In this document: positions 21,576 through 47,587 of the stretch, one piece after another | Position numbering within the stretch: the first letter of the stretch is position 1 | How the letters are laid out: the number at the start of each line of letters is the position of its first letter | Assembly: GCA_964354985.1 (NCBI GenBank) | Contig: CAYHBR010000001.1 | Span: 18,407-82,406, forward strand | DNA: 64,000 bases | Source: an uncultured Candidatus Saccharibacteria bacterium | Lineage (GTDB): Bacteria; Patescibacteriota; Minisyncoccia; Phycocordibacterales; UBA9973 | Direction of reading: 5' to 3' | Made by a program: the position numbers and the translations under genes | Notes under the pieces: model-generated | What the model was told of the DNA's origin: nothing | The model's database searches: none | The model's input: the letters and a program-made list of their open reading frames with translations, nothing else

Positions 21576-21585
21576 CCCCCCCCCC
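21576..21585. repeat. C10 homopolymer (G10 on the RT coding strand) about 14 nt upstream of the RT-1 ATG
   Basis: cccccccccc seen directly. The same arrangement recurs upstream of RT-2. Confidence 0.9.
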
Positions 21586-21616
21586 GAGCACTTTTACCAG
21601 TTCTAGGCAGTTTTAA

Positions 21617-21940
21617 AAATCTATATATTTTTGGTACGCTATTTATCAAATATTACCAAAAGCACACAGGCACACTCTGGGACAAAGGATTGACACGCTA
21701 TTTATTGAAAGTATTGAAGCAATTTCAATTGCCAGTTTTTTATCACGACAAGAAAAGCAACCATATGTTCGTGTTGCTATTAGAAAAATCGACACTTTAA
21801 AAGTGTTACTCATGATACTCTGGGAAACCAAATCTATAGACGATAAAAAATACATCGCCCTCTCGGTAAAGCTCGAAGAAATTGGAAAGATGCTCGGCGG
21901 CTGGAATGGACAATTAGCAAAACAAAACTCTCCCAAATAG
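21617..21940 (+). CDS. Avd-like accessory protein (four-helix-bundle / 23S rRNA IVS protein family), plus-strand, with no canonical ATG at the head of the frame
   Basis: A 107-codon open frame ending ..ALSVKLEEIGKMLGGWNGQLAKQNSPK. It is collinear with the plus-strand ORF at 47638..47961 (KLEEVGKMFGGW), and the differences between them are mostly synonymous. The ...ELxxQL...KLEEVGKML.G motif is typical of Avd/IVS proteins. Confidence 0.55.
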   Translation, partial: KSIYFWYAIYQILPKAHRHTLGQRIDTLFIESIEAISIASFLSRQEKQPYVRVAIRKIDTLKVLLMILWETKSIDDKKYIALSVKLEEIGKMLGGWNGQLAKQNSPK

Positions 21941-21960
21941 AGGGAGAGAAATGAAGAGAG

Positions 21961-22087
21961 TTGCGAAACGGCAAACGCGAACCCGTTCTCACGATTCCAC
22001 CTGTTATCAGGCTTGTCATAGTACGCATTGAGCCAACGACCATCGTCGTTACGGTTCGCGTTGAGCAAGTTAGGATCGCCATCGGAA
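21961..22087 (-). repeat. DGR-1 template repeat (TR-1); the ORF-track ORF 21646..22068 is a non-coding artefact of it
   Basis: 127 bp aligning to 22424..22550. About 15 mismatches, all at plus-strand T in this copy (A in the minus sense) against C or A in the other copy. Confidence 0.85.
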
Positions 22088-22342
22088 CGCGCGAGATATC
22101 ATCCGTGCCACCACCCTTTGAGTTCTCTCAGGATTGTATTTTATTCGGCATCGCAATGCCTCAATGTCTCGCGCCAAGTATCTTCGTTTTTGCAGGTTAC
22201 ATGCACTACTCTATCCGAAACCATGATCGCGGATACACTCAATGCAAGGATACTGGGTTCGGTAGCGCCCAACCGTGATCGTGCGCATATTCACCTACTG
22301 CCATCGGCAATTATATCGTATTTTATATTTTATGAAAAAAAT

Positions 22343-22370
22343 AGTCCCCGATTTAAAAAATCGAGGACTA
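22343..22370. other. Hairpin downstream of the target-1 stop (AGTCCcCGATTT-aa-AAATCGaGGACT). A second small palindrome, AGAACTgaAGTTCT, is at 22385-22398, immediately 3' of the VR
   Basis: Inverted repeats seen directly. DGR VRs are commonly followed by a stem-loop. Confidence 0.45.
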
Positions 22371-22405
22371 AGGACTAAATGCAAAGAACTGAAGTTCTGA
22401 GCATC

Positions 22406-23029
22406 TTAATTTTGAGTACTAACTTGCGAAACGGCAAACGCGAACCCGCCCTCACGATCCCACCTGCTATCAGGCTCGCCATAGTACGCAAAGAGCCAAC
22501 GACCACCGCCGAAACGGTCCGCGCTGAGCAAGTTAGGATCGCCACCGGAATCCTTGATCGGTTCGTGCATAGCAACGATCCAGATAAGCCCCATTGCTTC
22601 GATCTCCTCGTCTGTGAACTTTTCACGGATGAGACATGCGATCTCAGCGTTTGGTGTTTCCAATTTGCGATTGGCAGCTTCGCTACGGATCTTCTTAGTG
22701 ATACGGTTGTTGTCTTCGAACAGCATCCCTTTGAGTACCGCAACTTCGGTTGTTATTCCAGAAGTAGGCTTGAAATCTTTTGAAAGTAACACACTCTTAG
22801 CATAATCGCTGAGGCGGTATCCTTTTTTCTCAAGACGCACAATCCATTCTGCCCCGGTAGCGCCGTCAGAAATGACATTGAAGTAAATTACTCCATCTTT
22901 TTCTGTCCAGCTCCTTGCCGGTTCTGCAATAGTGATTTCACCACGAAGGAATCTATTAACTCCTTCTTCTCCACCAAGTTTGTTCCATACGGCTTCTACT
23001 CGGCCAAATGTAATATCAGGATATTTCAT
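22406..23029 (-). CDS. DGR-1 target (variable) protein, 207 aa, with a C-terminal CLec-like variable region (VR-1 at 22424..22550)
   Basis: The C-terminus ..RFGGGRWLFAYYGEPDSRWDREGGFAFAVSQ.. is encoded by VR-1. Residues 1-207 are homologous to the C-terminal ~200 aa of the 613-aa target at 48482..50323. Confidence 0.8.
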   Translation of the reverse strand: MKYPDITFGRVEAVWNKLGGEEGVNRFLRGEITIAEPARSWTEKDGVIYFNVISDGATGAEWIVRLEKKGYRLSDYAKSVLLSKDFKPTSGITTEVAVLKGMLFEDNNRITKKIRSEAANRKLETPNAEIACLIREKFTDEEIEAMGLIWIVAMHEPIKDSGGDPNLLSADRFGGGRWLFAYYGEPDSRWDREGGFAFAVSQVSTQN

Positions 23030-23097
23030 TCTTATAAGTTTTTAGGCTATTAGCCTTTTGTTGCTTACTGTCCGCAAGCTGGAGCGTGACTTTTGTT

Positions 23098-23154
23098 AGC
23101 CATAGCCAGAAAGCACCTCGTCGAAAGGAACCTTTTGGCTATGGCTATTTGCAA
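23098..23154. other. 10-bp perfect inverted repeat (GCCATAGCCA .. TGGCTATGGC) with a 27-nt loop, in the rnc / target-1 intergenic region
   Basis: Seen directly. Possibly regulatory or a small RNA. Confidence 0.3.
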
Positions 23155-23218
23155 GTTAGTTGGAAAGGAACTGTTTTATATTATACTCTTATTAACACAA
23201 AAGTCAATAGCTATGTAG

Positions 23219-23914
23219 TTATTCCCTCCACCCCTTTTTCTCAAGCGCACCTTCCGCCGCCGAAGTTTCGGCTTCTTGTTTAGATTTGCCTTTGCCACTC
23301 GCAATGTGCTCGCTACCAAAGAAAATACCGACAGTAAATTGTTTGTCGTGGTCTGGCCCAGTTTCCTTCATCACTTTGTAGGCCGGAGTGAGCGAGTAGT
23401 GTTCTTGCGCCATTTCTTGGATATAGCTTTTGGCGTCGCGCCAGAGTTTCTTTTTTACGATTTCATCGATACGACCTGCGAGAGTTTTTAAAATAAATTC
23501 GGTTGCAATATCGTAACCTTGGTCGAGGTAGATAGCACCGACAACAGCTTCATAGGTATTGGCGAGTATGTACTGACGGGCTTTGCCATTGTCTTTCTGC
23601 TCGCCTTTCGACAAAAGCAAATATTCATTCATACCGAGCTCGCTAGCAACCTCAGAAATGATAACAGCATTGACGAGTGCCGAACGGTAGCTCGTGAGTT
23701 CACCTTCGGTAACATTTGGATACTTATCAAAAAGGAAACGGGTGATAGCGAGTTCAAGAACCGCATCACCAAGGAATTCGAAGCGTTCGTTGTGAAAAAG
23801 TCCGGTGTTCGGATTTTCGTTGATATATGAGCGATGGATAAATGCTTGAGTTAAAAGACCTCGGTCTTTAAAATTGACGCCGATGGCTTTTTCAAATGAT
23901 GGAAAATCTGGCAT
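23219..23914 (-). CDS. rnc: Ribonuclease III
   Basis: ERFEFLGDAVLEL signature and a C-terminal dsRBD (..GKGKSKQEAETSAAEGAL..). Confidence 0.9.
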   Translation of the reverse strand: MPDFPSFEKAIGVNFKDRGLLTQAFIHRSYINENPNTGLFHNERFEFLGDAVLELAITRFLFDKYPNVTEGELTSYRSALVNAVIISEVASELGMNEYLLLSKGEQKDNGKARQYILANTYEAVVGAIYLDQGYDIATEFILKTLAGRIDEIVKKKLWRDAKSYIQEMAQEHYSLTPAYKVMKETGPDHDKQFTVGIFFGSEHIASGKGKSKQEAETSAAEGALEKKGWRE

Positions 23915-23998
23915 AGAGTTTTTAGATTTCGCAAAAACAGTGTTCCGAAACGATTCGGCACGCTCTTTTTACGCAGAGACTGTACGCGTGACTGCGCG

Positions 23999-24898
23999 TT
24001 AGTTCTGGCTAGTTATAAATTCGACTGATTTTTGAATCATAGCGACAGTATCGTCGTATGTTGTCAGGCTTGGTACTTCGGTCACTGGAAACCATTTGGC
24101 ATCGGTGAGACCGTCTTTTTGCTCCAGGAGTAGCGTCTGAAAGGGCGCTTCACCAAGGAAGTATGTCACCTGCTTTCGTATCTTACCCTTTTCTGGATGA
24201 GATGCAATATACTCGTTTTCGCCGAGAACAGTTTTGACAACAATTGGCAAACCGATCTCTTCACCAATATCGCGGACAATACCGTCTTCTGGTGTTTCGC
24301 TATCTTCAAGACTGCCTTTGGAAAGAGTCCAGTAGCCGAAAATGTCATGCACGAGTGCGAGGTATATCATGCCTTCGTGAAGTGCATAGACAACGGCACC
24401 AACTTTTTTCTCAATTGGCAGAGACTCAATGTCGACAAGCTCGTCTTTTTTCTTTTTGGAAACTTCATCTTTGCCTGGCTCGCCGATTTCTTTGTAAACA
24501 GCACCGAGTACTCCATTGATAAACTTACTGGAATTTTCACCACCAAAACTTTTGGCAAGTTCAATAGCTTCGTTGATTGCGACTTTTGGTGGGACTTGGG
24601 TTCTGTCACCAAAAAGAAGCTCAGTGAGCCCCATGCGCAGAATATTTCGATCAACAATATTTATTTTCTCAAGTGGCCAGTCTGGCGCAGCTTTTGAAAT
24701 AATATCATCAACAACAGAACGATGACGCAGTACGTCAGTGGTGAGAGCAAGAATGAAATCGCCATCTTCAAGACCTGGGCCGTATTCTTTGATATCCCTT
24801 TCTACTACATCAGCAACAGCCTCGTCTGGCACCTTACGAAAATCCCACTCAAAGAGTGATTGGAGAACAATGGATCTTGAAAGATGTCGATGTGCCAT
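23999..24898 (-). CDS. nusB: NusB-like antitermination domain fused to a C-terminal NUDIX hydrolase domain
   Basis: The N-terminal ~140 aa are NusB-like (..SRSIVLQSLFEWDF.., ..AINEAIELAKSFGGE..). The C-terminal half carries the Nudix box GSLEDSETPEDGIVRDIGEEIGL. Confidence 0.7.
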   Translation of the reverse strand: MAHRHLSRSIVLQSLFEWDFRKVPDEAVADVVERDIKEYGPGLEDGDFILALTTDVLRHRSVVDDIISKAAPDWPLEKINIVDRNILRMGLTELLFGDRTQVPPKVAINEAIELAKSFGGENSSKFINGVLGAVYKEIGEPGKDEVSKKKKDELVDIESLPIEKKVGAVVYALHEGMIYLALVHDIFGYWTLSKGSLEDSETPEDGIVRDIGEEIGLPIVVKTVLGENEYIASHPEKGKIRKQVTYFLGEAPFQTLLLEQKDGLTDAKWFPVTEVPSLTTYDDTVAMIQKSVEFITSQN

Positions 24899-24937
24899 AT
24901 TTGATGTAAGGAACTAAATACTTGTGCCGGTGGGCGA

Positions 24938-25192: not shown

Positions 25193-25239
25193 GTAAGATA
25201 GTATACGGATTTCTGAGAAAAAGGCAATATATTAGGCAA

Positions 25240-27288: not shown

Positions 27289-27338
27289 CTATGACACCAC
27301 TATCGATAAAGCCGGTGTGGATTTATATATATTATTTG

Positions 27339-27409: not shown

Positions 27410-27466
27410 CTACTAAAACAAGTCTGAGGCACAGACTTGTTCAGTTTTATTTTTAGTTAGAATAAA

Positions 27467-28015: not shown

Positions 28016-28017
28016 AT

Positions 28018-31000
28018 CTATTGTACAGGAACGGGAGAATCAACTACTGGCAACGGCGGGGCAACTTCTGTAACCGTCGGCACAACTTCAGGAGGAACCT
28101 CTGTTTGTACTGCTGTTATATCTGGGACCAAACCAATGTCTGGTGTCGGTATAGTCTCAGGAACAGGAGCAACCTCTGAAGTAGTGGAATCTGCTGTTGG
28201 TATATTAACATTATTAAGAAGTGTTTGCATCTGGTCACCGGTCACGCAAACTTCAGAACCATCTGATTTTTTAACACATATTTCTTCTGTGTGTACTTTT
28301 TTAGCAAATACTTCATCAAAGTATCCGCGAATAGCAATGACACGGGCGGACACAAAGTCGGTAAGAATTTTTGTTCCAGTTGCGACTTTTGCTTCAATAA
28401 TTGAAATAGGATTTTGAGCTATCTCGGATTGAACATCAGAAATGAGAGTTACCAATCCTTCTGTTGTAGAAATATCTCCCATCAAAAGCGATTGATCTTT
28501 CATTGAATATTTACCCGGCGAATATGTATTTTTTATAAAGGCGATTACTTGACCAACACCTTCTCCGCCAAAAGAAGTAAGTGCTTGTCCGATAACCATT
28601 CCATCTTCTGTTGCTTTCATTGCGACTCCCGGAGTCGTGGAGCTAGCAAGGAAATCCCCCGGTTCAATCACACCATTTTCAACAGAAACATTCATTGGAA
28701 CGCGACCAGAGAGTGCGACTGCAACTTGTGACGAGCCTATTCTTTTTCCATCATCAAGTATAAGTCCCGGCTGAGTAGAAACAACGCCTAATACTTCTTT
28801 ATCGTAAGTATTCGTTGTTCTTGTGACGCCTGACTCAAGTGAGTGATCTATTCTGACCAATTCTCCTGGTAGCAATCCCACATCACTCGTATTGTATATT
28901 TCAGCCAAATCAGCACCGCCTGTATTTGTAGAATTCGTTACCATTAGAAAACTTCCGGCATTGACAACGGGCGATGCGGCTACCGTTGCTACGTTTTGTG
29001 CAAATTGGAATTGGAGGTTTCCAGCGGTTCCAGCTGTCGTTACATATCCATGAACAAATACGCGCTGGGTTAATACTGCCGTTGTTGCAATAGCGCAAGA
29101 AGTTCCACTGGCAATAATATTACAATATGCGGAAGAGGTAGCAGAAATAGCATTAACTCCCTCCAGATTTATTGTCGCGCCGGCTGGAGTAGTGAATGTA
29201 TATTTCAAATCAGCAGTTGCATTTGATACGTTAGTATTAATACTTGCCTGAACATAATAAGTTGTATTTGCAGCCATAGCAAAAACTAATTCCGGATCAT
29301 TTAGAAAGACTGTCGAATTTGAAGTAGCCGTTGTCGGAGAAGCTTTTACTATATATTTACTGCCATCAGTATCGCAATTCTTCCAGGCTCCATTTTCATA
29401 ACAACGGAATTTATTTGAAGTAGTATTGTAATAAGTTCCACCATTTATACCAGCCGGATCAGCGCTCCCTGCGTCAAGCACCAATAGATCCGGTGTCGCT
29501 TTTCCAGTAATAGAACCGATTTGGATTTTACTTGATGTCGCTGTTCCGCCAGCCTCAAGAGTAATCGCGTTTGCGCCAGTTGTCGTAATTGTTCCTGCTC
29601 CTGCAAAAGTTAACCCTGTAGCTGATGTGCCAATAGTATCTATCGAGAGTACGCCGGTTAGTGCACCGCCTGTTGTGAGATTGAGTCCTGTTGAGGCAAT
29701 TGCCAAAGTATCGGAAGTAGAGCCCAACACAATAGTGTCAGTAGATGCCCCGTTTGTACCAATATTGATTGCGTTGTTTCCGCTACCAGTACCGATATTA
29801 ATTGTTTTTGAATCGTTGCCGTTTCCAATATTTACAGTTCCTGTTGTTCCAGAATCTAATGTCACTGAGCCTGTTGTGTCAGATTTTATGGAAACCACAC
29901 CGCCAGTACTAGCAAGCAATGTAATTCCGCCAGAACCAGAATATATATTGACAGTAGTTCCATCTGTAATATTACCAATTGTCACAGTTTTTCCAGAAGC
30001 ACCTGTTCCGATATTTACCGCACCAGTAGTTCCTGAGTCAACAGTTATATCGGAAGTTGTCGTTGAAGAAATTGTTCCCGCACTAGCAAAAGTTAGACCG
30101 GTTGCTGAAGCTCCGATTGTGTCGATAGAGGAGACACCAGTTATGGCGCCCGCACTAGAAACATTTAAACCAGAGGAAGTAACGACAAATGTCCCAGTTG
30201 CATTTCCAATAGCTGTATTTGATGATCCGGTTGTATTTATACTTGCCGTTCCACCAGAGACAGTAATGCCGGCGGACCCTATCAACAAGCCTGCGGAAGT
30301 AATTGTTCCTGACCCAGTTGAAGAAATATTTCCGGAAGTTGAAATAGCGCCAATTGAAGAGACGGAAGCAACTCCAGTTAGTGCGCCCGCGCTCGAAACA
30401 TTTAACCCGGAAGATAATAATGAGAACGTATCATCAGCTCCGTTACCAATGACTATTGTATTTACAGCGACACCATCACCAATGTGAATTGTTTTTCCAC
30501 TTGTTCCTGTACCAAGATTAACCGCACCCGTAGAACCAGAGTCAAGATTGAGAGCACCTGTTGTTCCTGAGGTTATTGAAAGAGCTGAGCCAGAAGCTGA
30601 AGTAATAGCGAGAGTGCTTCCGCCAGCGAGAGTTGTTGCACCTGTGCCTGTCAGTGTTGCGCTTCCTGCAGAAACTCCGAAACGAGTACTACCGCCGGTA
30701 ATAAAGTTTAAACCTTGAGCGTCTGTGGTTCCGAGAGAAGCAGAAGTTCCGAAAGCATTGCCCGACTGAACAAAAGCAAAAGAGTTAATTGTTGTTGCAG
30801 TGGTTGGAGTACATCCTAGACGCCATCTAGTAGCACCGGAATCGTACTGTGTACAGAAAGTTGTACCCGCTGGAATAATAACATCGGAACTAGTTCCAGT
30901 GATAATTCTATTTCCGGCAGTGGAGCTTGCAGACTCATTGCTTATCGTCAGATTGAAAGATGACGCATTCATAAACCGAATATACAAACCATCTACACCG

Positions 31001-34000
31001 CCTGCTATTCCAGTAAATGTTGCAGTATCAGTGCCTGTATAACGGATTAAACCACCCGAAGCTAACACAATATTATTTTGCACGCCTGTTGTTGCATAGT
31101 CAGTTCCTTTTGGTGTAATAAAATTGCCAGCAAAAGTTGAATTTCCGTTTACTGTTAAATTTCCGCCAGCAGTAATTAGTCCGCTTCCTGTAGTTATTGG
31201 TCTATTTGTTGTTGTATTAATACCGAGAGTGCCTGCACCAGTCATATTTAGGATCGAATCGTCCGCGACGAAAGTAAGGGCATTCGCATTATTAGTCATA
31301 ATCCCAGATCCAGTCGTAAAAGTATGACCTCCGGTAATAGCAACATCACCACCCAAATTTATTCCACCAGAACCACTATTTATATTTATAGCAGTTGATG
31401 TAGTAACATTTCCAATAGTAATATTTTTTGCATTTGCATTTGTTCCAATATTTATTGCACCAGTAGTTCCTGAATCTAAAGTTAGGATTCCAGTTGTTCC
31501 CGTAGAAACACTAAGCGAAGAACCATTGCCCGATGAAAGACTGGTAGTCCCCGCTCCAGATAAAGTAAGTGTTCCACCGGAAGACATACTCAAATTTCCT
31601 GCACCACTATCGGTGATACTTAAATTTTTCCCTGCCAAGTCTATCGTGCTATTTGCATCAACAGTCATCGAGTCAGATAGTTCACTAAAATCAAGAGCGT
31701 CGGTTAGACTTGAAGCAATTGATGACCATTTTATCCCTGTAGCTTGGGTAGAATCAGTGGTCAAAACAAAACCATTTGTAACACCAACAGGCAGTCTTGT
31801 TGAACTATTTACTCCGTTTCCAATAATTAAGTCACCTTTTGTCGTCACCGGAGAAAGTGCACTGAATGCAGAAGCAACTGTTGTTTGCCCGGTCCCACCC
31901 TGAGCAACACCCACTGTTCCGGTTGAAGTTAGATTTTTTGAAGCATCAGTAAATACAACTTTTGAAGCAGTAAGACTTGGGAGACTTACTGTACTACCGA
32001 GACTTATTGTCCCCGCACCTGAAATATTAAAATCTCCAGAAGCTAGAGCAAAAGAAATCGGGGTACTACTTGCGGTAGTGATTGTTGCATTGTTATTGTA
32101 AGCGCCTTGCATTGTGCTTATACCACAATCAGCCCAAGCACCTTGCACATAACAACGGAAAATACCGAGAGAATTGTTGTAATACATACTTCCGTTTGTA
32201 CCACCAACTGGGTCGCCGGTATCTGATTTTACATCAAGAGAAAATAAATCTGGAGTGACAGAACCGGCTCCGCCTGTTCCAATCTGAACTTTTCCTGTTC
32301 CTGTCCCAGCAGATTGCAATGACAATGTTCCGGTGCTTGTTCCCCACGTCGAAGCAGCGCCACCAGTCAAAGTCAAAGCTCCGCCTGAAGTAAAAGAAGA
32401 AGCAGATGTTGGAGTAAGATTTACTGCACCAGTTCCTGTTGCGGTGAAGTTTCCTGAAGAAAGTAAGATTGAAAGATCCGATGAAGACGTTGTAGTAATA
32501 GTTGAATTACTTACATATGCTTGTTGTAATGTAACAGCACTGGCAACAGAAGCACCGCAATCCTGCCATCCACCACCTTCATAACATCTAAAAGAATCAC
32601 GGGCGGCATTAAAATACATATCACCGTTATCACCAGTTGGGTCACCAGTTCCACTTGCGATACTTTTTTGATCTAAAGAAAATAAATCTGGAGTAGCAGA
32701 TGGTGCATCGTCGGCTCCAACATGCACGATACCTGTAGCTGAGCCATTTACACTTATAACCAAATCACCCGTACTCGTACCCCATGTCGAAGCAGCGCCA
32801 CCAGTCAAAGTCAAAGCTCCGCCTGAAGTAAAAGAAGAAGCAGATGTTGGGGTAAGGCTTACCGCACCAGCTCCTGAGGCAGTGAAGTTGCCTGAAGTTA
32901 ATACCAAACCTACATCAACCGCACCGGCAGTTGTAATAGTTCCTCCGCTATTATATGCACTTTGTAGTGATGTCGAGCCACCTGTTGTATCGCAGTCAGA
33001 CCAAGAACCATTTGTGTAACATCTAAATTTATTGGAATTTAGATTGTAATACATACTTCCGTTTGTGCCTTCGGCTGGATCTCCTGAATCTGATTTAACA
33101 TCGAGAGACAATAAATCCGGAGTAGTTGACCCTGCTCCGCCAACACCTATTTTAATAACACCAGTTGCGCCTCCGCCGGCTGACTGGAAAGTGATATTCC
33201 CTGCTGTTGTACTTAAACTCGAAGCAGCTCCTCCAACAAAAGTTAGTCCACTACTAGAAGTTATGCCAATAGCTCCAGCTGAACTATTTCCAATATTAAC
33301 AGCACCAGAAGATGTGCCTGTATTTATATTTGTTGCAAAATTACTACTAGCATTTATATTCGCTACTGCCCCAACCGCAGAAAGTCCCGCTGAAGCAGTA
33401 AAAAGTCCAGCCGAAGTCATTGTTCCAGTAGCTGTTGTAAAAATATTTCCTGAAGTTGTTAAATTGTCTCCCGCAGTTAAGGGCGATATTGTCGTGCCAA
33501 CTCTTTGAAATTTACTAGTGTTTGGACTCCAAGATAATCCTCCTGTGCCGTCAGTAATCAAGGCTTCCCCTAGTGCTCCGTCGGCGCTTGGCAATGTGTA
33601 TGTTGTTGAACCGGCAGTTGCAGGAGGAGCAAAACCAACATAGCCTGAAGTAGCGCCGGACAATCTAAGTTCGCCTTTTACATCAAGTGCTGAGCCTGGA
33701 ACTGCTTTTCCGATTCCCACTAAAGGATTTCCAAGACCGTCATCCATTATTCGCATTCTTTCTGAAGATGAGTCTGTTCCACTTGTAAAAAAAACAAGAG
33801 AAGTCCCTGTATCATTTGTTCCAATTACTAAATCACCGCCAAGTCCTCCAACTCCTCTCGAAACCAAGTAGGAATCATTTTTACCAGCTGGCGACCAACT
33901 AGCATCCGTAAAACCAGAAGAATTTATTCCCAAATCAACATACCCGCTTGTTTCACTTCCATTGTCTGCAGTTGCAACAATGTCTGAAGAAGCATTTGTG

Positions 34001-37000
34001 CCAGCATTACTGTTCTTAATGTTTAATTGTAAATAATTATTAACATCACCATATCCGCCGATTATATTGTATGAGGTACTTCCTGAAGGCATCACAACTT
34101 TCAAACGCTCTGGACTAATTGGATCAAAGATATCAGAACCGATCGCAAGATTTCCATTATTATCAATTATAAATGGAGATGTATCACTCGATGAATCATC
34201 TACTCGAAAACTATTTCCATTTCCCAAATTTGAAACAAATAACGGCATTGAAGCAGACGAAGCTAATGTTGTTGCTTTAACTATTGATGCCGTGCTATTT
34301 GCAGTCGATGCGATATTTTCACCAAAAGTAATTCCAGACTGACCGCTAGTTGCAAGTGACCAATTCCACACTTGTCCCAAATCCCCATTGTTGATTGTGT
34401 TTGTTGCAAGTGCTTCTGTTAGAGACGAAAGATGTGTTGCTCCATTAAATCCCCCGGAACAAGTAAGGACTCCAACTGTTCCATCTACACTACATCCAGT
34501 TGAGCCATAACCACCCATAAGATTGAGAGTACCAGATGCGCCCGGAGCACCAATATTTACGGTTGTTGCTGATCCTCCAATATTTAAAGCTGTGGCATTT
34601 GTATTAAAAAGATTTCCTGTTGCGCTTGTAGTAGAAATCGTTCCGCCATTTATTGCGGAGTTTGAAGCAGTGGTAAATAAACCGCTTGAATTGACTGACC
34701 AATTTGCAGAATTTAAAGAAAGAGAATCAAGACCACTTCCCAATGAAATAGTATCCGCAAGAGTATCATCTGTCCCTACATTAATAACGTTACCAGCATT
34801 TCCTGTTCCAATAGATATTGTTTTTCCACTTGTTCCTGTACCAAGATTAACCGCACCCGTAGAACCAGAGTCAAGATTGAGAGCACCTGTTGTTCCTGAG
34901 GTTATTGAAAGAGCTGAGCCAGAAGCTGAAGTAATAGCGAGAGTGCTTCCGCCAGCGAGAGTTGTTGCACCTGTGCCTGTCAGTGTTGCGCTTCCTGCAG
35001 AAACTCCGAAACGAGTACTACCGCCGGTAATAAAGTTTAAACCTTGAGCGTCTGTGGTTCCGAGAGAAGCGGTTGTTCCGAATTGATTGCCACCTTGTAT
35101 ATAAGCAAACCCCGAAAGTGTTCCGATTGTCGCAGGTAATACCACAATGCGCCAGCGACTTATAGCTGAATCATATTCAAGACCGATAGACACTCCTGCC
35201 GGAACAGTTTGATTTAAACTAGATGCCGTTACAATGCGATTGATATCCGTAGAACTTAAACTCTCGTTAACAAGTGTTACTGCAAAACTTGAAGCATTCA
35301 TTATACGGATTTGTTTTCCATCTGCTCCCCCAGTTATTCCCGTGAAAGTAGCTACGCCCAGTCCTGTATAACGGAAAAGATAGCCGGATCCAAAATCAAC
35401 ATCATTATGCGAACCTGTTGTTGCATAATCAGTTCCTTTTGGTGTGATAAAATCTCCTGAAACAGTCAAGTTGCCACTTAGAGTTTTTGCACCCGATATT
35501 GTCTGCGTTCCGCTTGTTACAAGTCCTCTGTTTGTTGCAGAGGCATCTGGAATATTCAATGTAAGAGTTCCTCCGAGCGAAGTCGGTGAACCTGAAATAT
35601 TTGCGTCTGTTCCGGATGTTCCTAGTGTTAAACCAATAGTTGAATTTACTAATTTATTATTTGCAATCGTCCCAGTAACAATATCGCCATTGACGATAGA
35701 GCCGGCGAGATTGAGTTTACTATATGCAACTGATGCACTTGCTGAAAGATCTCCGTCTACAATCGTTCCGTCTAATATTTTGCCTGTAGTAATTGCCCCA
35801 GTGCCAATAGTAATAGCACCAGCATTACTGACAGTTGCGTCGCCCGATGCTGTAACAAAAGTTGGAACACCAGAAACATTGGCGACCAGAAACTGACCCG
35901 AAGAACCTGCTGTAGTGGCAGAAAGAGCGCTCGTTCCATTGCCATAAAGTAAACCTTTTGTTGTAAATGTCCCTGATCCAGTTCCACCTCGCGCGACAGA
36001 AAGATTTCCGGAAGTAATAGCTCCGACATCGAGGGATGTTGTGCCGGCAGCGGTCAATCTACCTTGTGCGTCCACTGTAAAAGTTGGGACCAAAGTACTA
36101 GAACCATAGTCACCTAAAGTGACAGCAGTATTATTTAAAGCGAAAGTAATATTCCCCGAACCAATAAGCCTGTTCGTAAGTGTTCCACTCAATCCAACTC
36201 CAGTGCCTGCGAGCAGGTCACCGTTACCTGTATTTAACAAGCAAGTTGGACAATCAATATTTCCAGTAGTGGCTGAATAACTTATTGGTCCAACACCAGC
36301 TATTGAATTCCTCGCACGGGCATTTGTAAAATATTGATTTGTCCCTTCAGAAATATTACTTGTTGTTAAGCTTACCGCGCCAGTTAGGCCATTTACACTA
36401 GCAACATTTGTTCCCTGTTGAATACGATCCCAAGTTGCACCGTTGTTTAAAATCCAATCCCCAACCGCCCAAGTTGAATTGCCATCTATAGATGTGCTTC
36501 CTGCGACACTTACAATAAATAAATCTCCTGCAATATCAGGTAGTCCATTTTCTAGCCCACCACTAGCAAGAGGCGGTGTATTGGTGTCTGCATCCCAAAC
36601 TCCATCATATTTTAATGAACCAGTAATTGAGCTAGGTAATAATGAAGTATTTATCTTACCACCAACATCAAGAAGAGATATCCAAGAAAGATCGCCCGCA
36701 AGAACTGCGTGGTTGTCAGCAGTACCTGTCCCTAAGTCCGCAGGAACGATTGAACGAAAAGTGGGATTAGTGGAAACGCCATCAGTCGGTCCAAGTAAAA
36801 AATTGTTAGCAGCAACAATTTCTGAAAATACACCGCCACCTTTACATTCAAAGATAGTGCCGTTCCAGCTAAGCCTTTCGTTACTAGCACAAGTTGGGAC
36901 ATTTACTTTTAAGTCTGTCCCTGAAAAAATTAAACCATTACCGATGCTTATTTCTGAAGTATTATCTGATGACCCAGTTGGATTTCCAAGCAATTTACTA

Positions 37001-37605
37001 GCGCTAACACTTGGTAGTTTTGCAAAAGTGACGCTACCATTTAGAATTTTTGAAGAAGTAATAGCATTGCTTACAATAGAAAATGCGCCGGCACTACTCA
37101 TTGAGGCATCACCCGAAACGGTAACTTGGCTCGCCAAGTTTGAACCATCGCCGACAAGTATTTTCCCTGACGACAAAGAAGGTGAGAGTTTGTTATTAAA
37201 TGTCGTCCAATCTGTAGCCGAAAGCAATCCTCTTTTTATAGAAGAGGCAGAAGGAAAATTGAAAGTGTGAATATCTGAGCCGGAAACAATATTAAAATCG
37301 GTGCCGGTTGTCCCTGTGGTAAATGTTTGAGTAGAACCACTTTGACTGTTTAGAATTAAACTGGTTGGTATTATTCCGCAACTAGGACTTCCTGCGGTAC
37401 AATCTGGCTCTAGTGTAACTCCGGGCAAATACAGGGTTGCGTTGGCTATTCGTGGAGCTATTAGACTAAGACCAAAAGTAGATAGAATTAAAATAAAAAT
37501 TCCAAACATAGAAAAAACCGATTTGCGGTTTTGGATAAACCGATAATGAACCAAGTTGGAAATGACAAATTTCTTGAAAGATTTTTCTTTCATTTGACTA
37601 CACAC
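28018..37605 (-). CDS. Giant surface protein (3195 aa): an N-terminal signal/anchor, Gly/Thr/Ser/Ala-rich repetitive beta-solenoid-like modules, a C-terminal globular region and a Pro/Thr/Val-rich tail
   Basis: One uninterrupted ORF. N-terminal hydrophobic segment (FSMFGIFILILSTFGLSLIAP). Pervasive GxT/GS repeats. Four copies of a FRCY..G.W.DC module. ~250-bp exact internal DNA repeats. Only spurious antisense ORFs overlap it. Confidence 0.85.
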   Translation of the reverse strand: MCSQMKEKSFKKFVISNLVHYRFIQNRKSVFSMFGIFILILSTFGLSLIAPRIANATLYLPGVTLEPDCTAGSPSCGIIPTSLILNSQSGSTQTFTTGTTGTDFNIVSGSDIHTFNFPSASSIKRGLLSATDWTTFNNKLSPSLSSGKILVGDGSNLASQVTVSGDASMSSAGAFSIVSNAITSSKILNGSVTFAKLPSVSASKLLGNPTGSSDNTSEISIGNGLIFSGTDLKVNVPTCASNERLSWNGTIFECKGGGVFSEIVAANNFLLGPTDGVSTNPTFRSIVPADLGTGTADNHAVLAGDLSWISLLDVGGKINTSLLPSSITGSLKYDGVWDADTNTPPLASGGLENGLPDIAGDLFIVSVAGSTSIDGNSTWAVGDWILNNGATWDRIQQGTNVASVNGLTGAVSLTTSNISEGTNQYFTNARARNSIAGVGPISYSATTGNIDCPTCLLNTGNGDLLAGTGVGLSGTLTNRLIGSGNITFALNNTAVTLGDYGSSTLVPTFTVDAQGRLTAAGTTSLDVGAITSGNLSVARGGTGSGTFTTKGLLYGNGTSALSATTAGSSGQFLVANVSGVPTFVTASGDATVSNAGAITIGTGAITTGKILDGTIVDGDLSASASVAYSKLNLAGSIVNGDIVTGTIANNKLVNSTIGLTLGTSGTDANISGSPTSLGGTLTLNIPDASATNRGLVTSGTQTISGAKTLSGNLTVSGDFITPKGTDYATTGSHNDVDFGSGYLFRYTGLGVATFTGITGGADGKQIRIMNASSFAVTLVNESLSSTDINRIVTASSLNQTVPAGVSIGLEYDSAISRWRIVVLPATIGTLSGFAYIQGGNQFGTTASLGTTDAQGLNFITGGSTRFGVSAGSATLTGTGATTLAGGSTLAITSASGSALSITSGTTGALNLDSGSTGAVNLGTGTSGKTISIGTGNAGNVINVGTDDTLADTISLGSGLDSLSLNSANWSVNSSGLFTTASNSAINGGTISTTSATGNLFNTNATALNIGGSATTVNIGAPGASGTLNLMGGYGSTGCSVDGTVGVLTCSGGFNGATHLSSLTEALATNTINNGDLGQVWNWSLATSGQSGITFGENIASTANSTASIVKATTLASSASMPLFVSNLGNGNSFRVDDSSSDTSPFIIDNNGNLAIGSDIFDPISPERLKVVMPSGSTSYNIIGGYGDVNNYLQLNIKNSNAGTNASSDIVATADNGSETSGYVDLGINSSGFTDASWSPAGKNDSYLVSRGVGGLGGDLVIGTNDTGTSLVFFTSGTDSSSERMRIMDDGLGNPLVGIGKAVPGSALDVKGELRLSGATSGYVGFAPPATAGSTTYTLPSADGALGEALITDGTGGLSWSPNTSKFQRVGTTISPLTAGDNLTTSGNIFTTATGTMTSAGLFTASAGLSAVGAVANINASSNFATNINTGTSSGAVNIGNSSAGAIGITSSSGLTFVGGAASSLSTTAGNITFQSAGGGATGVIKIGVGGAGSTTPDLLSLDVKSDSGDPAEGTNGSMYYNLNSNKFRCYTNGSWSDCDTTGGSTSLQSAYNSGGTITTAGAVDVGLVLTSGNFTASGAGAVSLTPTSASSFTSGGALTLTGGAASTWGTSTGDLVISVNGSATGIVHVGADDAPSATPDLFSLDQKSIASGTGDPTGDNGDMYFNAARDSFRCYEGGGWQDCGASVASAVTLQQAYVSNSTITTTSSSDLSILLSSGNFTATGTGAVNLTPTSASSFTSGGALTLTGGAASTWGTSTGTLSLQSAGTGTGKVQIGTGGAGSVTPDLFSLDVKSDTGDPVGGTNGSMYYNNSLGIFRCYVQGAWADCGISTMQGAYNNNATITTASSTPISFALASGDFNISGAGTISLGSTVSLPSLTASKVVFTDASKNLTSTGTVGVAQGGTGQTTVASAFSALSPVTTKGDLIIGNGVNSSTRLPVGVTNGFVLTTDSTQATGIKWSSIASSLTDALDFSELSDSMTVDANSTIDLAGKNLSITDSGAGNLSMSSGGTLTLSGAGTTSLSSGNGSSLSVSTGTTGILTLDSGTTGAINIGTNANAKNITIGNVTTSTAININSGSGGINLGGDVAITGGHTFTTGSGIMTNNANALTFVADDSILNMTGAGTLGINTTTNRPITTGSGLITAGGNLTVNGNSTFAGNFITPKGTDYATTGVQNNIVLASGGLIRYTGTDTATFTGIAGGVDGLYIRFMNASSFNLTISNESASSTAGNRIITGTSSDVIIPAGTTFCTQYDSGATRWRLGCTPTTATTINSFAFVQSGNAFGTSASLGTTDAQGLNFITGGSTRFGVSAGSATLTGTGATTLAGGSTLAITSASGSALSITSGTTGALNLDSGSTGAVNLGTGTSGKTIHIGDGVAVNTIVIGNGADDTFSLLSSGLNVSSAGALTGVASVSSIGAISTSGNISSTGSGTITSAGLLIGSAGITVSGGTASINTTGSSNTAIGNATGTFVVTSSGLNVSSAGAITGVSSIDTIGASATGLTFASAGTISSTTTSDITVDSGTTGAVNIGTGASGKTVTIGNITDGTTVNIYSGSGGITLLASTGGVVSIKSDTTGSVTLDSGTTGTVNIGNGNDSKTINIGTGSGNNAINIGTNGASTDTIVLGSTSDTLAIASTGLNLTTGGALTGVLSIDTIGTSATGLTFAGAGTITTTGANAITLEAGGTATSSKIQIGSITGKATPDLLVLDAGSADPAGINGGTYYNTTSNKFRCYENGAWKNCDTDGSKYIVKASPTTATSNSTVFLNDPELVFAMAANTTYYVQASINTNVSNATADLKYTFTTPAGATINLEGVNAISATSSAYCNIIASGTSCAIATTAVLTQRVFVHGYVTTAGTAGNLQFQFAQNVATVAASPVVNAGSFLMVTNSTNTGGADLAEIYNTSDVGLLPGELVRIDHSLESGVTRTTNTYDKEVLGVVSTQPGLILDDGKRIGSSQVAVALSGRVPMNVSVENGVIEPGDFLASSTTPGVAMKATEDGMVIGQALTSFGGEGVGQVIAFIKNTYSPGKYSMKDQSLLMGDISTTEGLVTLISDVQSEIAQNPISIIEAKVATGTKILTDFVSARVIAIRGYFDEVFAKKVHTEEICVKKSDGSEVCVTGDQMQTLLNNVNIPTADSTTSEVAPVPETIPTPDIGLVPDITAVQTEVPPEVVPTVTEVAPPLPVVDSPVPVQ
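30491..30741. repeat. ~250-bp exact intragenic direct repeat, copy 1 (copy 2 at 34820..35070)
   Basis: An identical string runs from tttttccacttgttcctgtaccaagattaaccgcacccgtag... to ...gtggttccgagagaagc at both positions. It encodes the duplicated segment ..STRFGVSAGSATLTGTGATTLAGGSTLAITSASGSALSITSGTTGALNLDSGSTGAVNLGTGTSGKT.. Confidence 0.9.
34820..35070. repeat. ~250-bp exact intragenic direct repeat, copy 2
   Basis: See copy 1. A second repeat pair (~70 bp near-exact, ~120 bp similar) lies at 32342..32460 and 32780..32898. Confidence 0.9.
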
Positions 37606-37639: not shown

Positions 37640-37647
37640 GGGGGGGG
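37640..37647. repeat. G8 homopolymer (C8 in the gene sense) about 30 nt upstream of the giant gene start
   Basis: gggtggggggggtg seen directly in an AT-rich intergenic region. Confidence 0.85.
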
Positions 37648-41127: not shown

Positions 41128-41199
41128 CGCGGCTGATGGGTGCTGACCCCACGACCTTTCCCGTGACAGGGGAATATTCTACCGTTGAACTACAGCCGC
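41128..41199 (-). tRNA. tRNA-Asp (anticodon GUC), with an unusual T-loop
   Basis: GCGGCTG-TA-GTTC-AACGGTA-GAAT-A-TTCCC-CTGTCAC-GGGAA-AGGTC-GTGGG-GTCAGCA-CCCAT-CAGCCGC-G. The T-loop GTCAGCA is atypical. Confidence 0.65.
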
Positions 41200-41428: not shown

Positions 41429-41745
41429 TGCGGGGCCACGAATCGAACGTGGGTCTTAAGGTTATGCATACCGCTACAGTTTTCACTGCAATTGCTTTTT
41501 GTGGTCTGGACTATGCCTTCACCCATTTGCGCAAACCGATTGGTTATTACAAATTAGGGGTCTGCCGTCTAGTCTCTACACCTTCAATAAAATTGTTTAA
41601 CGAATTTTAAAGCTTGGCTCGGCGTTGTCATTTGTCGTACTTTCTTATAACAAGAAGATTTCACCGAATTTGACAGATATTCCACTAGCTATTACTGGCT
41701 AGTGAGCCCAATTGAGCCTTACGAGATACCTCTTCTCTACCCCGC
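41429..41745 (-). ncRNA. ssrA: tmRNA (ssrA), about 317 nt
   Basis: 5' GCGGGGT pairs with 3' GCCCCGC-A. A tRNA-like T-arm CCACG-TTCGATT-CGTGG sits at the 3' end. The length and position beside a tRNA cluster fit. The internal tag reading frame was not resolved. Confidence 0.65.
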
Positions 41746-41870
41746 GATGTCGCAAAACATTGCCCAACAATGATACCACAGTTTTGCTTTTTTGCAATTT
41801 TTAAGAATAGTGTTTTGTGGACAGATACAGGGGCTTCATTTAGCTGATTTAGCGTGGTAGTATTGTCTGT

Positions 41871-43706: not shown

Positions 43707-43754
43707 ATTTCTTAGTAAAAAATAAAATATTAATAATTTTTTTAGTAAACTAAA

Positions 43755-44240
43755 TTAATTTGCCGTTTTATATTTTGTGATATTAAATGTTGGAAAAGGT
43801 ATTCCCGAGCCAGTAACACAATTTGTTGTTGTTGGAAATGTTTCGTAAAATCCTAAAATCCACTGACCGCTCCGCACTGCAGTTTTGGATTGTTCTCTGC
43901 TATATGCACTATTTGCAGATCCTGCTTCGCTATGTAGTTGAGAATTTTCATCGAGTAAACTTTGGCTTGGAGTAATTCCTTGTTGACCAAGCAGTGCAAG
44001 GTTATCGTCACTTGCTTTTGCCCTAGATGAGGCTGATTTCATTGTTTCGTACAACTCTTTTATTTTTGCACTAAATATCGAATACGGATAAACCGGACTC
44101 ATTCCTGCGGGTTTTATTAAAATAGGTCCTGTCCCCATACAAGTAACCCCCGGTGTAAATGTTGTTAATATTCTCCCACCAAAACCTCTTGTACCCCCCC
44201 CATTGCAAATGAAGTAATCGGAATAGCAGTAATTAAGCAA
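43755..44240 (-). CDS. Secreted hypothetical protein whose N-terminus depends on a G/C homopolymer
   Basis: The ORF-track frame starts at a TTG. An upstream ATG frame encodes a textbook signal peptide MKNKIIILCLITAIPITSFA that meets the main frame inside a poly-C run (8-9 nt, about 44195-44203). I could not count the tract reliably enough to say whether the two frames are in phase. Confidence 0.5.
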   Translation of the reverse strand: MLNYCYSDYFICNGGGTRGFGGRILTTFTPGVTCMGTGPILIKPAGMSPVYPYSIFSAKIKELYETMKSASSRAKASDDNLALLGQQGITPSQSLLDENSQLHSEAGSANSAYSREQSKTAVRSGQWILGFYETFPTTTNCVTGSGIPFPTFNITKYKTAN

Positions 44241-44358
44241 AGAATTATAATTTTATTTTTCATACAATAATATTAACATATAAAAAAATCTGCAACAAAA
44301 TTTTTTTATATATTTTCAAAAATTCTTAAGACAGATCTGCTCCCATAACTATAGAAAC

Positions 44359-46500
44359 CTAGATATCCAGTTTCGCCATCTTGGCATTGGACTGGATGAA
44401 GCTCTTGCGTGGCGCAACTTCAGAGCCCATGAGTGTGTCGAAAACTTTGTTGGCTTCTTCGGCGTCGTCGATAGTAACTTGCTTGAGAATGCGCTTGGCA
44501 GGATCCATGGTTGTTTCCCAAAGCTCATCGGCATTCATTTCGCCGAGACCTTTGTAGCGTTGGATGTGGATTTTGTTGGCAGCTTTTTTGCCTTTTGCTT
44601 CGGTTTCTTCTTCGGTTTCATCGGCACCAGTGTCTCCTGAACCACCTGCCTCGTCGTCAAGGGCTTCTATTTCTTCTATCTCAACATCGCCTCCAGTTAT
44701 CTTGTTTTTTTCTTCATCTGAATATGCATAGGAAATCTGTTTGCCCTGTTTTATTTTATACAGCGGTGGCTGTGCGATGTAAACATAGCCGGCATCGATC
44801 ACACTTCGGAAATAACGGAACATAAGGGTCAAAATAAGTGTACGAATGTGCGCGCCGTCAACATCGGCATCGGTTGCCAGGATAATTTTGTGATAGCGAA
44901 TTTTCGAAATATCGAGCGTGTCGCCGATCGAAGTTCCCATCGCAATGACGAGATTTTTGATCTGCTCACTACCGAGCATGCGGTCGAGTCTGGCTCGTTC
45001 AACATTTAAAATTTTACCACGCAAAGGAAGCACGGCTTGCGTCTTTCGGTCGCGACCCATTTTGGCAGTACCGCCGGCCGAGTCTCCCTCTACAATGAAA
45101 ACTTCTGACTCACTGGCGTCTTTGCTCTGACAATCTGCGAGTTTGCCCGGAAGTGTCATGCCTTCAAGTGCGCCTTTGCGGAGAATAGAATCCTTGGCAG
45201 CTTTGGCGGCTTTGCGAGCGCGAAGTGCAAGAACGGCTTTGCCGATAATACCTTTGGCATCGTCAGGATTTTCTTCGAGGTACTGCTCGAAGGCTTCACC
45301 GAAAACTTTTTGGACTGCACCCTGTGCTTCGGTTGAACCGAGCTTGGCTTTGGTTTGACCTTCAAACTGGATTTCAGCAAGCTTGACGGAAATTATCGCA
45401 GTCAAACCTTCGAGTACATCGTCGCCGGTAAATCCACCATCGGCTTCTTTGAGTACAGAATTTTTCTTGGCGAAGCTGTTGACCAAACGAGTGAGCGCCA
45501 TTTTGAAACCAGCGACATGGGTTCCGCCTTCAGCTGTGTAGATATTGTTGGCAAATGGCATGAGCCTGTCTGCCATATCGTCGACATACTGGAGCGCAAC
45601 TTCAACGCCGACGCCATCGATTTCTTTTTCAACATAGAAAATTTTATCGTGAACAGGCTTGAGGTGCTTGTTGGTGAATTTGACGAGCGAAACGAGACCG
45701 CCTTCAAAAAAGAACGAGACGGATGGAAGTTCGAGGTCAAGGTCTTTGATCCAGTAAGTGTCAGTGTCGTCTATTGTTGCGCCTTTTTTTGAGACTGTTT
45801 TTTCATCATTATTTTTTTCATCACCGTACCCACGCGCGTCGACGATTTCTATACGAAGTGAACTTACCAAATATGCTTGCTGACGCAAATGGTTGACGAT
45901 TGTTTCAAAATTGAAAGTTGTATCTGGAAAAATAATACCGTCTGGCTGGAAAGTAATAATCGTACCGTTTTTCTTTGACGCGTCGACTTTTTTGACGGCA
46001 GCTTTTTTCTTGCCTTGCGAATATTCTTGGACAAACTTACCTCCTTCACGATGGACTTCAGCACGAGTATAAATAGAAAGTGCGTTGACGACAGAGGCGC
46101 CGACACCGTGCAAACCGCCAGAAACTTTGTAGCCAGATTCATCGCCACCAAATTTGCCGCCAGCGTGGAGTGTCGTCATGACAGTTTCAAGAGCCGAGAC
46201 TTTAGTTTTTGAGTGAATACCAGTTGGAATACCGCGACCGTTGTCGGCAACACGGATTTTGTTTCCCGGCAAAAGCACGACTTCGATACGATTACAAAAA
46301 CCACCCATGGCTTCGTCGCGCGAGTTGTCGAAAATTTCCCAAATGAGGTGATGCAGACCGTCAATGCCTGTCGTACCAATGTACATACCAGGGCGTTTGC
46401 GAACTGGTTCGAGACCTTCAAGGACGGAAATAGCCTCCGCACCGTAATTGCCTTTCTTAGTCTTTTCTTTGGTTTCTTTCTGTTCTGATTCTTTGGCCAT
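44359..46500 (-). CDS. gyrB: DNA gyrase subunit B
   Basis: GHKL ATPase motifs (..ILRKGALEG..), a Toprim region (VEGDSAGG) and the gyrB-specific C-terminal domain. Confidence 0.9.
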   Translation of the reverse strand: MAKESEQKETKEKTKKGNYGAEAISVLEGLEPVRKRPGMYIGTTGIDGLHHLIWEIFDNSRDEAMGGFCNRIEVVLLPGNKIRVADNGRGIPTGIHSKTKVSALETVMTTLHAGGKFGGDESGYKVSGGLHGVGASVVNALSIYTRAEVHREGGKFVQEYSQGKKKAAVKKVDASKKNGTIITFQPDGIIFPDTTFNFETIVNHLRQQAYLVSSLRIEIVDARGYGDEKNNDEKTVSKKGATIDDTDTYWIKDLDLELPSVSFFFEGGLVSLVKFTNKHLKPVHDKIFYVEKEIDGVGVEVALQYVDDMADRLMPFANNIYTAEGGTHVAGFKMALTRLVNSFAKKNSVLKEADGGFTGDDVLEGLTAIISVKLAEIQFEGQTKAKLGSTEAQGAVQKVFGEAFEQYLEENPDDAKGIIGKAVLALRARKAAKAAKDSILRKGALEGMTLPGKLADCQSKDASESEVFIVEGDSAGGTAKMGRDRKTQAVLPLRGKILNVERARLDRMLGSEQIKNLVIAMGTSIGDTLDISKIRYHKIILATDADVDGAHIRTLILTLMFRYFRSVIDAGYVYIAQPPLYKIKQGKQISYAYSDEEKNKITGGDVEIEEIEALDDEAGGSGDTGADETEEETEAKGKKAANKIHIQRYKGLGEMNADELWETTMDPAKRILKQVTIDDAEEANKVFDTLMGSEVAPRKSFIQSNAKMAKLDI

Positions 46501-46523
46501 ATATGACGATATTATAGCAGATT

Positions 46524-47567
46524 TTAGATGGAAATGCGAGGGATTTTAGGTGGAAATTGCTGGGTTTTTGGTCCGATTTTGGTGGGTTTTCTAAAATTAT
46601 ATATAATCGTTTGCTTAAGTCGATGAGTATTCCCATGACTAAGTAATCCAATATAAGATGTTGTAGTTGCACCTGATTGTCTCTGTCTTAAATTTCTGAA
46701 CATTCTCTTTTTGGTAGATGTCCTTGGCACTCGATGGTACGGGAAATGCACCCAACCGAGAAAATCCACACCTGAGGCAAATGTTTTTATAAATACCTTA
46801 TCAGGATGCAAGGATAGATTGAGTCTTGTCTCTAGAAATGCCGATATTTTTGGCAGAACATCTTCTAAGTATTTTTTGTCTTTATGAAGGATAACAAAAT
46901 CATCCGCATATCTGACGCAGTATGTAATTTTCAAATCTCTCTTAAGAAAGTGATCGAACTCGTTCATATAAATGTTCACTAAAAGTTGGCTCGTGAGATT
47001 ACCAAGAGGTAGTCCGACGCTGTGCCTGTCTTTTGTGTTGAAACTGCCGACAATCTCCTTGAAAAGCCGTATTATATCTTCATCTCCCATTCGGAGTTTC
47101 AAAATATCTTCCAAGATTCTGTGATCAATATTCGCAAAAAACTTTCTGATGTCGCATTTCAGCACCCACATAGTCTGCGTATGATTTTTAGAAACCTTAA
47201 GCGCATAGTTTCGAAATCTATCAAGCGCGCGGTGTGTGCCTTTGCCTCGACGACATGAGTACGAATCAAAAATAAATTTGGTGTCAAAATATGGATACAA
47301 AATCCTATAAATAGCATGGTGGAGAAGCCGATCGCGGACACTTGCCTTGTGAATGTCCCGAGGCTTTGGGTCGTTGATACGAAAAGCTTTGTACGGACCG
47401 TGACGGTATGTCTTGTCGACAAGTTCACGGTGAAGGGCAAGTATATTATCGGTTAGATGCACTGAAAATTGGGCGACATCTTTACGGTTCCGTTTTCCGC
47501 GCAGGAATTCTCGCCACGCAACAAGTAAGTTTTCCACCGAAATGATATTATTGTAGGTATGAATCAA
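46524..47567 (-). CDS. DGR reverse transcriptase (RT-2); the likely true start is the TTG at 47567, and the ORF-track N-terminal extension reads through the poly-G tract
   Basis: 348 aa, about 65% identical to RT-1. Same GLPLGNLTSQLLVNIY and YADD motifs. Homology with RT-1 begins at ..IHTYNNIISVENLL.. Confidence 0.85.
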   Translation of the reverse strand: MIHTYNNIISVENLLVAWREFLRGKRNRKDVAQFSVHLTDNILALHRELVDKTYRHGPYKAFRINDPKPRDIHKASVRDRLLHHAIYRILYPYFDTKFIFDSYSCRRGKGTHRALDRFRNYALKVSKNHTQTMWVLKCDIRKFFANIDHRILEDILKLRMGDEDIIRLFKEIVGSFNTKDRHSVGLPLGNLTSQLLVNIYMNEFDHFLKRDLKITYCVRYADDFVILHKDKKYLEDVLPKISAFLETRLNLSLHPDKVFIKTFASGVDFLGWVHFPYHRVPRTSTKKRMFRNLRQRQSGATTTSYIGLLSHGNTHRLKQTIIYNFRKPTKIGPKTQQFPPKIPRISI

Positions 47568-47577
47568 CCGACTAATA

Positions 47578-47587
47578 CCCCCCCCCC
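47578..47587. repeat. C10 homopolymer (G10 in the RT sense) about 10 nt upstream of the RT-2 start
   Basis: cccccccccc seen directly, in the same position as at RT-1. Confidence 0.9.

Follow-up and report, generated by a model that had tools for sequence, protein, structure and literature searches.

This study concerns a simple-sequence repeat at the junction between the avd gene and the reverse transcriptase (RT) gene of diversity-generating retroelements (DGRs). The two DGR cassettes from which it started lie in a stretch of 64,000 nucleotides, hereafter called the window, from contig CAYHBR010000001.1 (positions 18,407 to 82,406, forward strand; assembly GCA_964354985.1) of an uncultured Candidatus Saccharibacteria bacterium. 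In both cassettes a run of ten G in the RT sense precedes the RT start, and on the opposite strand the same run lies at the 5' end of the avd open reading frame (ORF), where its length sets the reading frame. We consider it probable that avd is subject to slipped-strand phase variation by this repeat, which would be hypermutable.

Position, conservation and length of the junction repeat

Both tracts were confirmed on the plus strand as C10, i.e., G10 in the RT sense, at exactly 21576-21585 and 47578-47587. A preliminary description of the window, made from the sequence alone, had placed G10 ahead of both RT starts, and this was found to be right, with a spacing of 13 nt for RT1 and 10 nt for RT2. 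It had also noted an N-terminal extension of RT2 that reads through the tract; indeed, a 367-aa ORF (46524..47627) crosses tract 2. Runs of G8 or longer were found in four places only in the window, which has a G+C content of about 40%. The number of overlapping G8 matches was 8 compared to 0.42 expected from shuffles, and a count of 8 was attained in none of 100 shuffles. ENA ERZ4201063 NODE_296 (SPAdes, 33x), an independent assembly record for this contig, has G10 too, and a Logan assembly of another run was identical, again with G10.

Related loci were collected in two sets. For the genome set, 80 loci from bacteria of the Candidate Phyla Radiation (CPR) were fetched with an RT alignment; together with viral relatives and both window cassettes, 80 loci were analysable. 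The metagenome set was retrieved by a 24-nt motif taken from the antisense of the avd 5' end, and comprised 66 analysable loci. A simple-sequence repeat was found at the exact avd/RT junction in 72 of the 80 loci of the genome set, window cassettes included, and in all 66 of the metagenome set. The preliminary description had called the tract conserved and had proposed a check of orthologous DGRs; with these counts the position of the tract is common to more than 130 related loci. Its worry about assembly error was not substantiated, the repeat being present at the same position in nearly all related loci examined. In the genome set the repeats were poly-G of 6-12, (GA)n of 10-42 nt, three hybrids and one (GT)13, while over both sets poly-G ranged from 6 to 18, with (GA)n of 10-42 nt, hybrids, and (GT)n at one locus per set. 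Cassette 2 itself carries poly-G although it falls within a mostly (GA)n clade. Since the repeat type switches within clades and hybrids occur, it is the repeat as such that is conserved, and not one given sequence. Within 415 kb around the 80 genome loci, 74 repeats of such size were at the junction and 4 elsewhere, where they were about 18-fold rarer. Two of these four were extra G10 runs of a single locus (L066), at +1039 and +2888 nt from its RT start.

Tract lengths were then compared between assembled contigs. Two Logan contigs (L094 and L095) had no mismatches in 3331 nt and differed only by G11 and G10. The window and its counterpart from the sister sample ERZ4201065 (L092) differed by G10 and G11, and by 22 substitutions in 4044 nt, all of them within VR2, the variable repeat (VR) of cassette 2. 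Of these, 21 were at sites where the template repeat (TR) has adenine; the remaining difference, at position 48530, faces a TR guanine. As VR2 and the tract hold the only differences within these 4044 nt, cassette 2 was recently active, and its tract has changed over an equally short time. One (GA)n element was recovered from five samples with tracts of 25, 25, 17, 21, and 21 nt and identical flanks, covering all three phases; Avd is intact with the allele of 25 nt and out of frame with those of 17 and 21 nt. One poly-G lineage spans G7 to G18, a G14 allele in the cassette-2 clade is in frame, and members of RT clusters at 90% identity show the same length variation at the protein level. Three of the features by which contingency genes are recognized were found: a perfect repeat of switching length (homopolymer of at least 7, dinucleotide of at least 5 units) inside an ORF, length polymorphism among near-identical genomes, and a toggle in silico between intact and truncated product.

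Reading frames of avd and RT

The genes and tracts of the two junctions are as follows, in window coordinates.

21576..21585, plus strand: tract 1, C10 in the avd sense, encoding PPP in the N-terminal tail of avd1; OFF phase
21542..21940, plus strand: avd1 (bAvd / DivGenRetAVD), ATG at 21542 antisense to the RT1 His codon; broken at the tract and at the T5 run 21628-21632
20576..21562, minus strand: RT1, 328 aa, ATG at 21562
47578..47587, plus strand: tract 2, C10 in the avd sense; OFF phase; C11 in the sister sample, likewise OFF
47559..47961, plus strand: avd2, ATG at 47559 antisense to the RT2 His codon; body frame open from 47563
46524..47664, minus strand: RT2, short form from TTG 47567, ORF of the G10 phase from TTG 47627, putative long form from ATG 47664

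In the avd sense the tract reads CCC CCC CCC C and encodes Pro-Pro-Pro. The avd ATG lies upstream of it, by 19 nt in cassette 2 and by 34 nt in cassette 1, and coincides exactly with the antisense of CAT, the codon of an invariant His near the N-terminus of RT. The alignment to the NCBIfam Avd profile begins about 10 residues past the tract, and no canonical start (ATG, GTG, TTG) was found between the tract and the start of the profile. Three lines of evidence led us to take the upstream ATG as the start of avd. The RT His codon opposite to it is CAT at 62 loci and CAC at 1, whereas for His elsewhere in these RTs CAT was counted 722 times and CAC 468 times (p = 3e-12; this and the p-values below are optimistic, for a reason given further on). 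The 8 relatives free of the repeat all possess an ATG in frame with, and upstream of, the Avd homology, and in L001, L037, L063, and L082 this ATG was seen by eye to be the antisense of the RT His codon. Finally, the N-terminus of Avd at the family level lies upstream of the internal TTG 47638, the sole alternative start. Read in silico from its ATG, avd2 stops after 30 aa with C10 and after 19 aa with C11, while C9 or C12 gives an intact Avd of 133 or 134 aa.

Because the avd ORF contains the tract near its 5' end and is read in a frame that depends on tract length, the main effect of the tract is placed on the avd strand. The preliminary description had thought of a slipped-strand switch on RT expression. 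Its slippage part is supported by the near-identical contigs that differ in tract length, but its strand was wrong for the main effect. Control of RT by the tract would apply in the cassette-2 clade only, through the putative long RT form. The frame of RT1 is independent of tract length because RT1 has its own ATG 13 nt past the tract. In the cassette-1 clade this ATG lies 13-16 nt past the tract, and its antisense encodes a His of the Avd tail; with RT having its own start after the tract, avd alone would be gated there.

The situation differs in the cassette-2 clade, where 31 of 73 loci lack any start codon from the tract to the RT body. Some 66 nt upstream of the tract there is a further ATG, the antisense of the His codon in the Avd motif IVPHIxK. 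In RT2 this is ATG 47664, antisense to the His of IVPHIAK, and the putative long form starting from it is in frame only with G9 or G12. The His codon of IVPHIxK is CAT at 40 of 40 loci, while His codons elsewhere in Avd are CAT 46 times and CAC 49 times (p = 3e-10). Codons of avd that would read as stops in the antisense (TTA, CTA, and TCA) are depleted where the two ORFs overlap, with 9 of 176 Leu/Ser codons versus 171 of 676 elsewhere (p = 1e-10). These biases suggest that the long RT form is translated. The start codons of avd and of the long RT form are antisense partners in codon register, and both ORFs are thereby opened by one and the same phase.

Cassette 1 has a second frame break besides the tract, at the T5 run, and avd1 would be open only with C9 or C12 plus T6 at 21628-21632. 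For this reason avd1 is probably a pseudogene. The N-terminal helix of avd1 (RALLPVLGSFKNLYIF) and the avd1 body are in different frames, and cassette 1 may thus depend on Avd2 or be inactive, despite past adenine changes in VR1.

Phase variation of avd would work as follows. The repeat would sit in the first 10-20 codons of avd, transcribed divergently from RT, in the order avd ATG (antisense of the RT His), repeat translated as PPP or (LS)n, and conserved first Avd helix. Replication slippage would gain or lose repeat units, and one length class in three would keep the ATG in frame with the Avd body. The tract would then act as a stochastic, heritable, and reversible ON/OFF switch on mutagenic retrohoming. 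A switch of Avd would gate retrohoming because in the sole reconstituted DGR RT is inactive without Avd, as reported for Bordetella phage BPP-1 (PMC6182149). Reversible switching at the DNA level within populations and loss of Avd function in the OFF phases are predictions of this model. In the cassette-2 clade the long RT form would start about 66 nt upstream of the tract, codon-aligned antisense to avd, and one phase, G9 or G12 in cassette 2, would open both. That a single slippage event switches both avd and the long RT, and that the repeat is a second-order contingency locus and a common regulatory logic of DGRs in this CPR clade, is a more tentative proposal, in which we place slightly less than even trust.

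Arguments against phase variation and alternative explanations

Several observations weigh against phase variation of avd. In-frame loci were not enriched: 28 of 72 loci in the genome set were in frame versus 29 expected if the phase is random, and 13 of 58 in the metagenome set, where the three phases counted 24, 21, and 13. Consensus genomes are often OFF. A tract outside the translated avd would produce the same phase counts, so that counts alone cannot tell a switch from an untranslated tract; the start-codon evidence does. VR2 has diversified recently though both observed alleles of cassette 2 (G10 and G11) are OFF. Coverage of the G11 contig is only 4x, and the G10/G11 difference could be a homopolymer error. 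Locus L102 is garbled at about 1300-1330, GCGGGGGCGCCCCCCAG, where L101, identical at 99.6%, has G14 (1281-1294); the long poly-G there seems to have been damaged in sequencing or assembly. A good Shine-Dalgarno-like sequence, AAAGAGGGA, lies 5 nt upstream of the internal TTG 47638, and in the cassette-2 clade a start there could yield a tract-independent Avd of 107 aa, which we regard as a live alternative. Lastly, the loci are not phylogenetically independent, which makes the p-values of the codon biases optimistic.

Gene callers do take avd2 as 107 aa from TTG 47638. In the public gene calls for L091, L092, L094, L095, and L102 avd is likewise the 107-aa ORF from the internal TTG, and near-identical RTs of these loci are called at many lengths, from 301 to 393 aa. 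In such calls the phase of the tract decides which ORF extension is open.

The recent diversification of VR2 at 21 TR-adenine sites between two OFF samples, together with the lack of enrichment of ON phases, would be explained if slippage took place at expression, with RNA polymerase or ribosome slipping on the run, so that a little Avd is made in frame whatever the genotype. In such a case the tract would serve as an attenuator that holds Avd at low levels. Slippage is known to occur at CCC-C runs and at long homopolymers; for dinucleotide runs such as (CT)n or (GA)n no such mechanism is established, to our knowledge. Offsets 0, 1, and 2 occur at similar frequency, whereas programmed shifts hold one fixed offset, and differences in length at the DNA level were seen directly between near-identical contigs. 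We regard expression slippage as the sole cause as unlikely, but it may coexist with slippage of the DNA. A programmed frameshift of fixed offset was considered separately and rejected, since all three offsets occur across homologues.

A role of the tract in the RT sense or as DNA, with its position in avd incidental and Avd starting downstream, appears a little less likely still. It could be a purine-rich ribosome-binding leader for RT, or non-B DNA (H-DNA, Z-DNA) between divergent genes. The tract is purine-rich in the RT sense at 71 of 72 loci, with (GT)n instead at one locus per set; the RT ATG comes 1-6 nt after (GA)n and at a conserved 13-16 nt after poly-G, compared to the 5-10 nt usual for a Shine-Dalgarno motif. 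Poly-G could by inference pair with a CCUCC anti-Shine-Dalgarno with one G-U pair, and the Shine-Dalgarno-like sequence ahead of TTG 47638 fits a downstream start of Avd. Nevertheless, a Shine-Dalgarno sequence needs 4-6 nt as opposed to the 10-42 nt of perfect repeat found, and 31 of 73 loci are without a start between tract and RT body. The CAT bias and the in-frame ATGs of the repeat-free relatives amount to selection for an avd ATG upstream of the tract. A Shine-Dalgarno-like role, suggested in the preliminary description, may exist, though only as a side function, as it leaves the long, perfect, length-variable repeat unexplained. Its other suggestion, a structural RNA element, found no backing: secondary structure around the tracts, in both senses, was no better than in shuffles (z-scores +0.48, -1.00, -0.08, and +1.52), and an Rfam scan of the window gave no match at the tract, only tRNAs and a group I intron. 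Moreover, the promoter-like site and terminator-like hairpin of TR1, described below, would leave the tract outside the terminated TR transcript.

Long homopolymers are error-prone, and the garbled L102 and the 4x coverage of the G11 contig are what would be expected from an artefact of sequencing or assembly. However, more than 130 loci have a perfect repeat at this very position; many projects, assemblers, and lineages are represented among them, and their RTs are as little as about 60% identical. Lineages differ in the type of repeat, such repeats are near-absent from the 415 kb of flanking DNA, and independent samples agree on the 21-nt and the 25-nt alleles. A neutral mutational hotspot without function would fare no better, as neutral repeats would decay through interruptions. 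On the breadth and specificity of the feature we exclude an artefact, and we give very little credence to either of these explanations.

Cassette anatomy, other repeats, and relation to known systems

The cassettes, which lie on the minus strand, are both genuine DGRs with the layout TR-(avd)-RT and avd on the opposite strand. The differences between TR and VR are confined to TR adenines in both of them. The repeats are placed as follows.

21961..22087, minus strand: TR1
22424..22550, minus strand: VR1, at the 3' end of the target ORF 23029..22406; differs from TR1 at TR adenines only
47992..48126, minus strand: TR2
48495..48629, minus strand: VR2, at the 3' end of the target ORF 50323..48482

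The two RTs matched Pfam RVT_1 at 2e-26 and 5e-24, and are 59% identical to each other in protein sequence. Their motif LPLGNLTSQ is shared with 583 CPR relatives, and RT homologues come from Patescibacteria. Avd on the plus strand scored 45-46 bits with Pfam bAvd, above the cut-off of 40 bits, and 57-62 bits with NCBIfam DivGenRetAVD, below the curated cut-off of 80 bits. The neighbouring genes, encoding NusB, RNase III, SMC, and gyrase B, point to a cellular genome. In L101 and L102 (JGI 3300055488 and 3300056809), close relatives of cassette 2, a 613-aa target gene is called opposite the RT strand, unlike in the window.

Upstream of TR1, in the region 22310-22370, there is a promoter-like site on the minus strand (22338-22310, 10/12 matches), and directly after TR1 a terminator-like hairpin with a T-run (21948-21928, minus strand). 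A further terminator-like hairpin was seen after the target gene, ahead of the promoter-like site. The arrangement suggests a short stand-alone TR RNA, ending before the antisense avd.

The window has two more G8 runs. One of them, at 44194-44201 on the minus strand, is directly past a signal-peptide-like start (MKNKIIILCLITAIPITSFAMGG...) in the ORFs 44263.. and 44240..43755. The signal-peptide frame stops soon after the run, and a body ORF of 161 aa is in frame only with G9. These frames suggest another candidate for a phase-variable gene, at present in the OFF state. The other, at 37640-37647 (C8 in the minus sense), is about 35 nt upstream of GTG 37605 of a repeat-rich ORF of 3195 aa (28018..37605) and adjoins a tRNA gene; a role as a repeat within a promoter or a leader is possible. 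The group I intron matched by Rfam is located at 41485-41724 on the minus strand (56.9 bits), about 290 nt from the tRNA gene 41128-41199.

The separate parts of this system are already known: B3-type DGRs of CPR bacteria, phase variation driven by repeats, and the dependence of RT on Avd in BPP-1. According to the passages of Wu et al. (2018; PMC5758913) used here, the B3 architecture TR-(avd)-RT is reported for 90% of CPR DGRs. Like the CPR DGRs described in those passages and in parts of Roux et al. (2021; PMC8144416; DGR clade 2), the window cassettes have a target with a 3' VR, a TR, a reverse-strand avd, and an RT with LPLGNLTSQ, are adenine-specific, and have relatives in Patescibacteria. 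Nothing is said in the same passages of both papers about a repeat where avd and RT meet, an antisense overlap of the starts, or a variable avd frame. A link between DGRs and a repeat switch was not found in the literature searched, which did not include the principal study of DGRs in CPR bacteria (Paul et al., 2017). The DGR of BPP-1 (avd-TR-brt) has the same parts as the window cassettes, but its avd runs in the same direction as brt, upstream of TR, and there is no repeat. In BPP-1 there is a spacer RNA between TR and brt; in the window that interval is the antisense avd.

The window tracts resemble those of contingency loci, such as the poly-G genes of Campylobacter, Neisseria, and Haemophilus and the mod genes, in that a perfect tract in the first codons is polymorphic in length in near-identical strains, with the phase setting ON or OFF. 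Unlike in those loci, the gated gene here would be a cofactor of a targeted hypermutation enzyme and not a surface or restriction-modification gene, and the hosts are uncultured CPR bacteria. The (TA)n switch of hifA-hifB in Haemophilus influenzae is alike in that one repeat between two divergent genes would control both. However, the hif repeat alters promoter spacing, whereas the window tract would be translated and alters frame, and in the cassette-2 clade it lies in an antisense dual-coding overlap.

The arrangement is a compact dual antisense coding, in which each start codon complements a conserved His codon of the partner gene. With avd starting at the upstream ATG, gene callers systematically mis-annotate such avd genes as 107-aa fragments and give variable RT starts. 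CPR bacteria harbour one of the largest DGR clades. The finding bears on the open question of how DGRs are held in check, as bacterial DGRs are often silent or tightly regulated by a mechanism that is not known (bioRxiv 10.1101/2024.11.15.621889). If the repeat indeed gates Avd, and sometimes RT, the ON/OFF state could be read directly from metagenomic reads, and the activity of CPR DGRs would be a stochastic trait at the level of the population.

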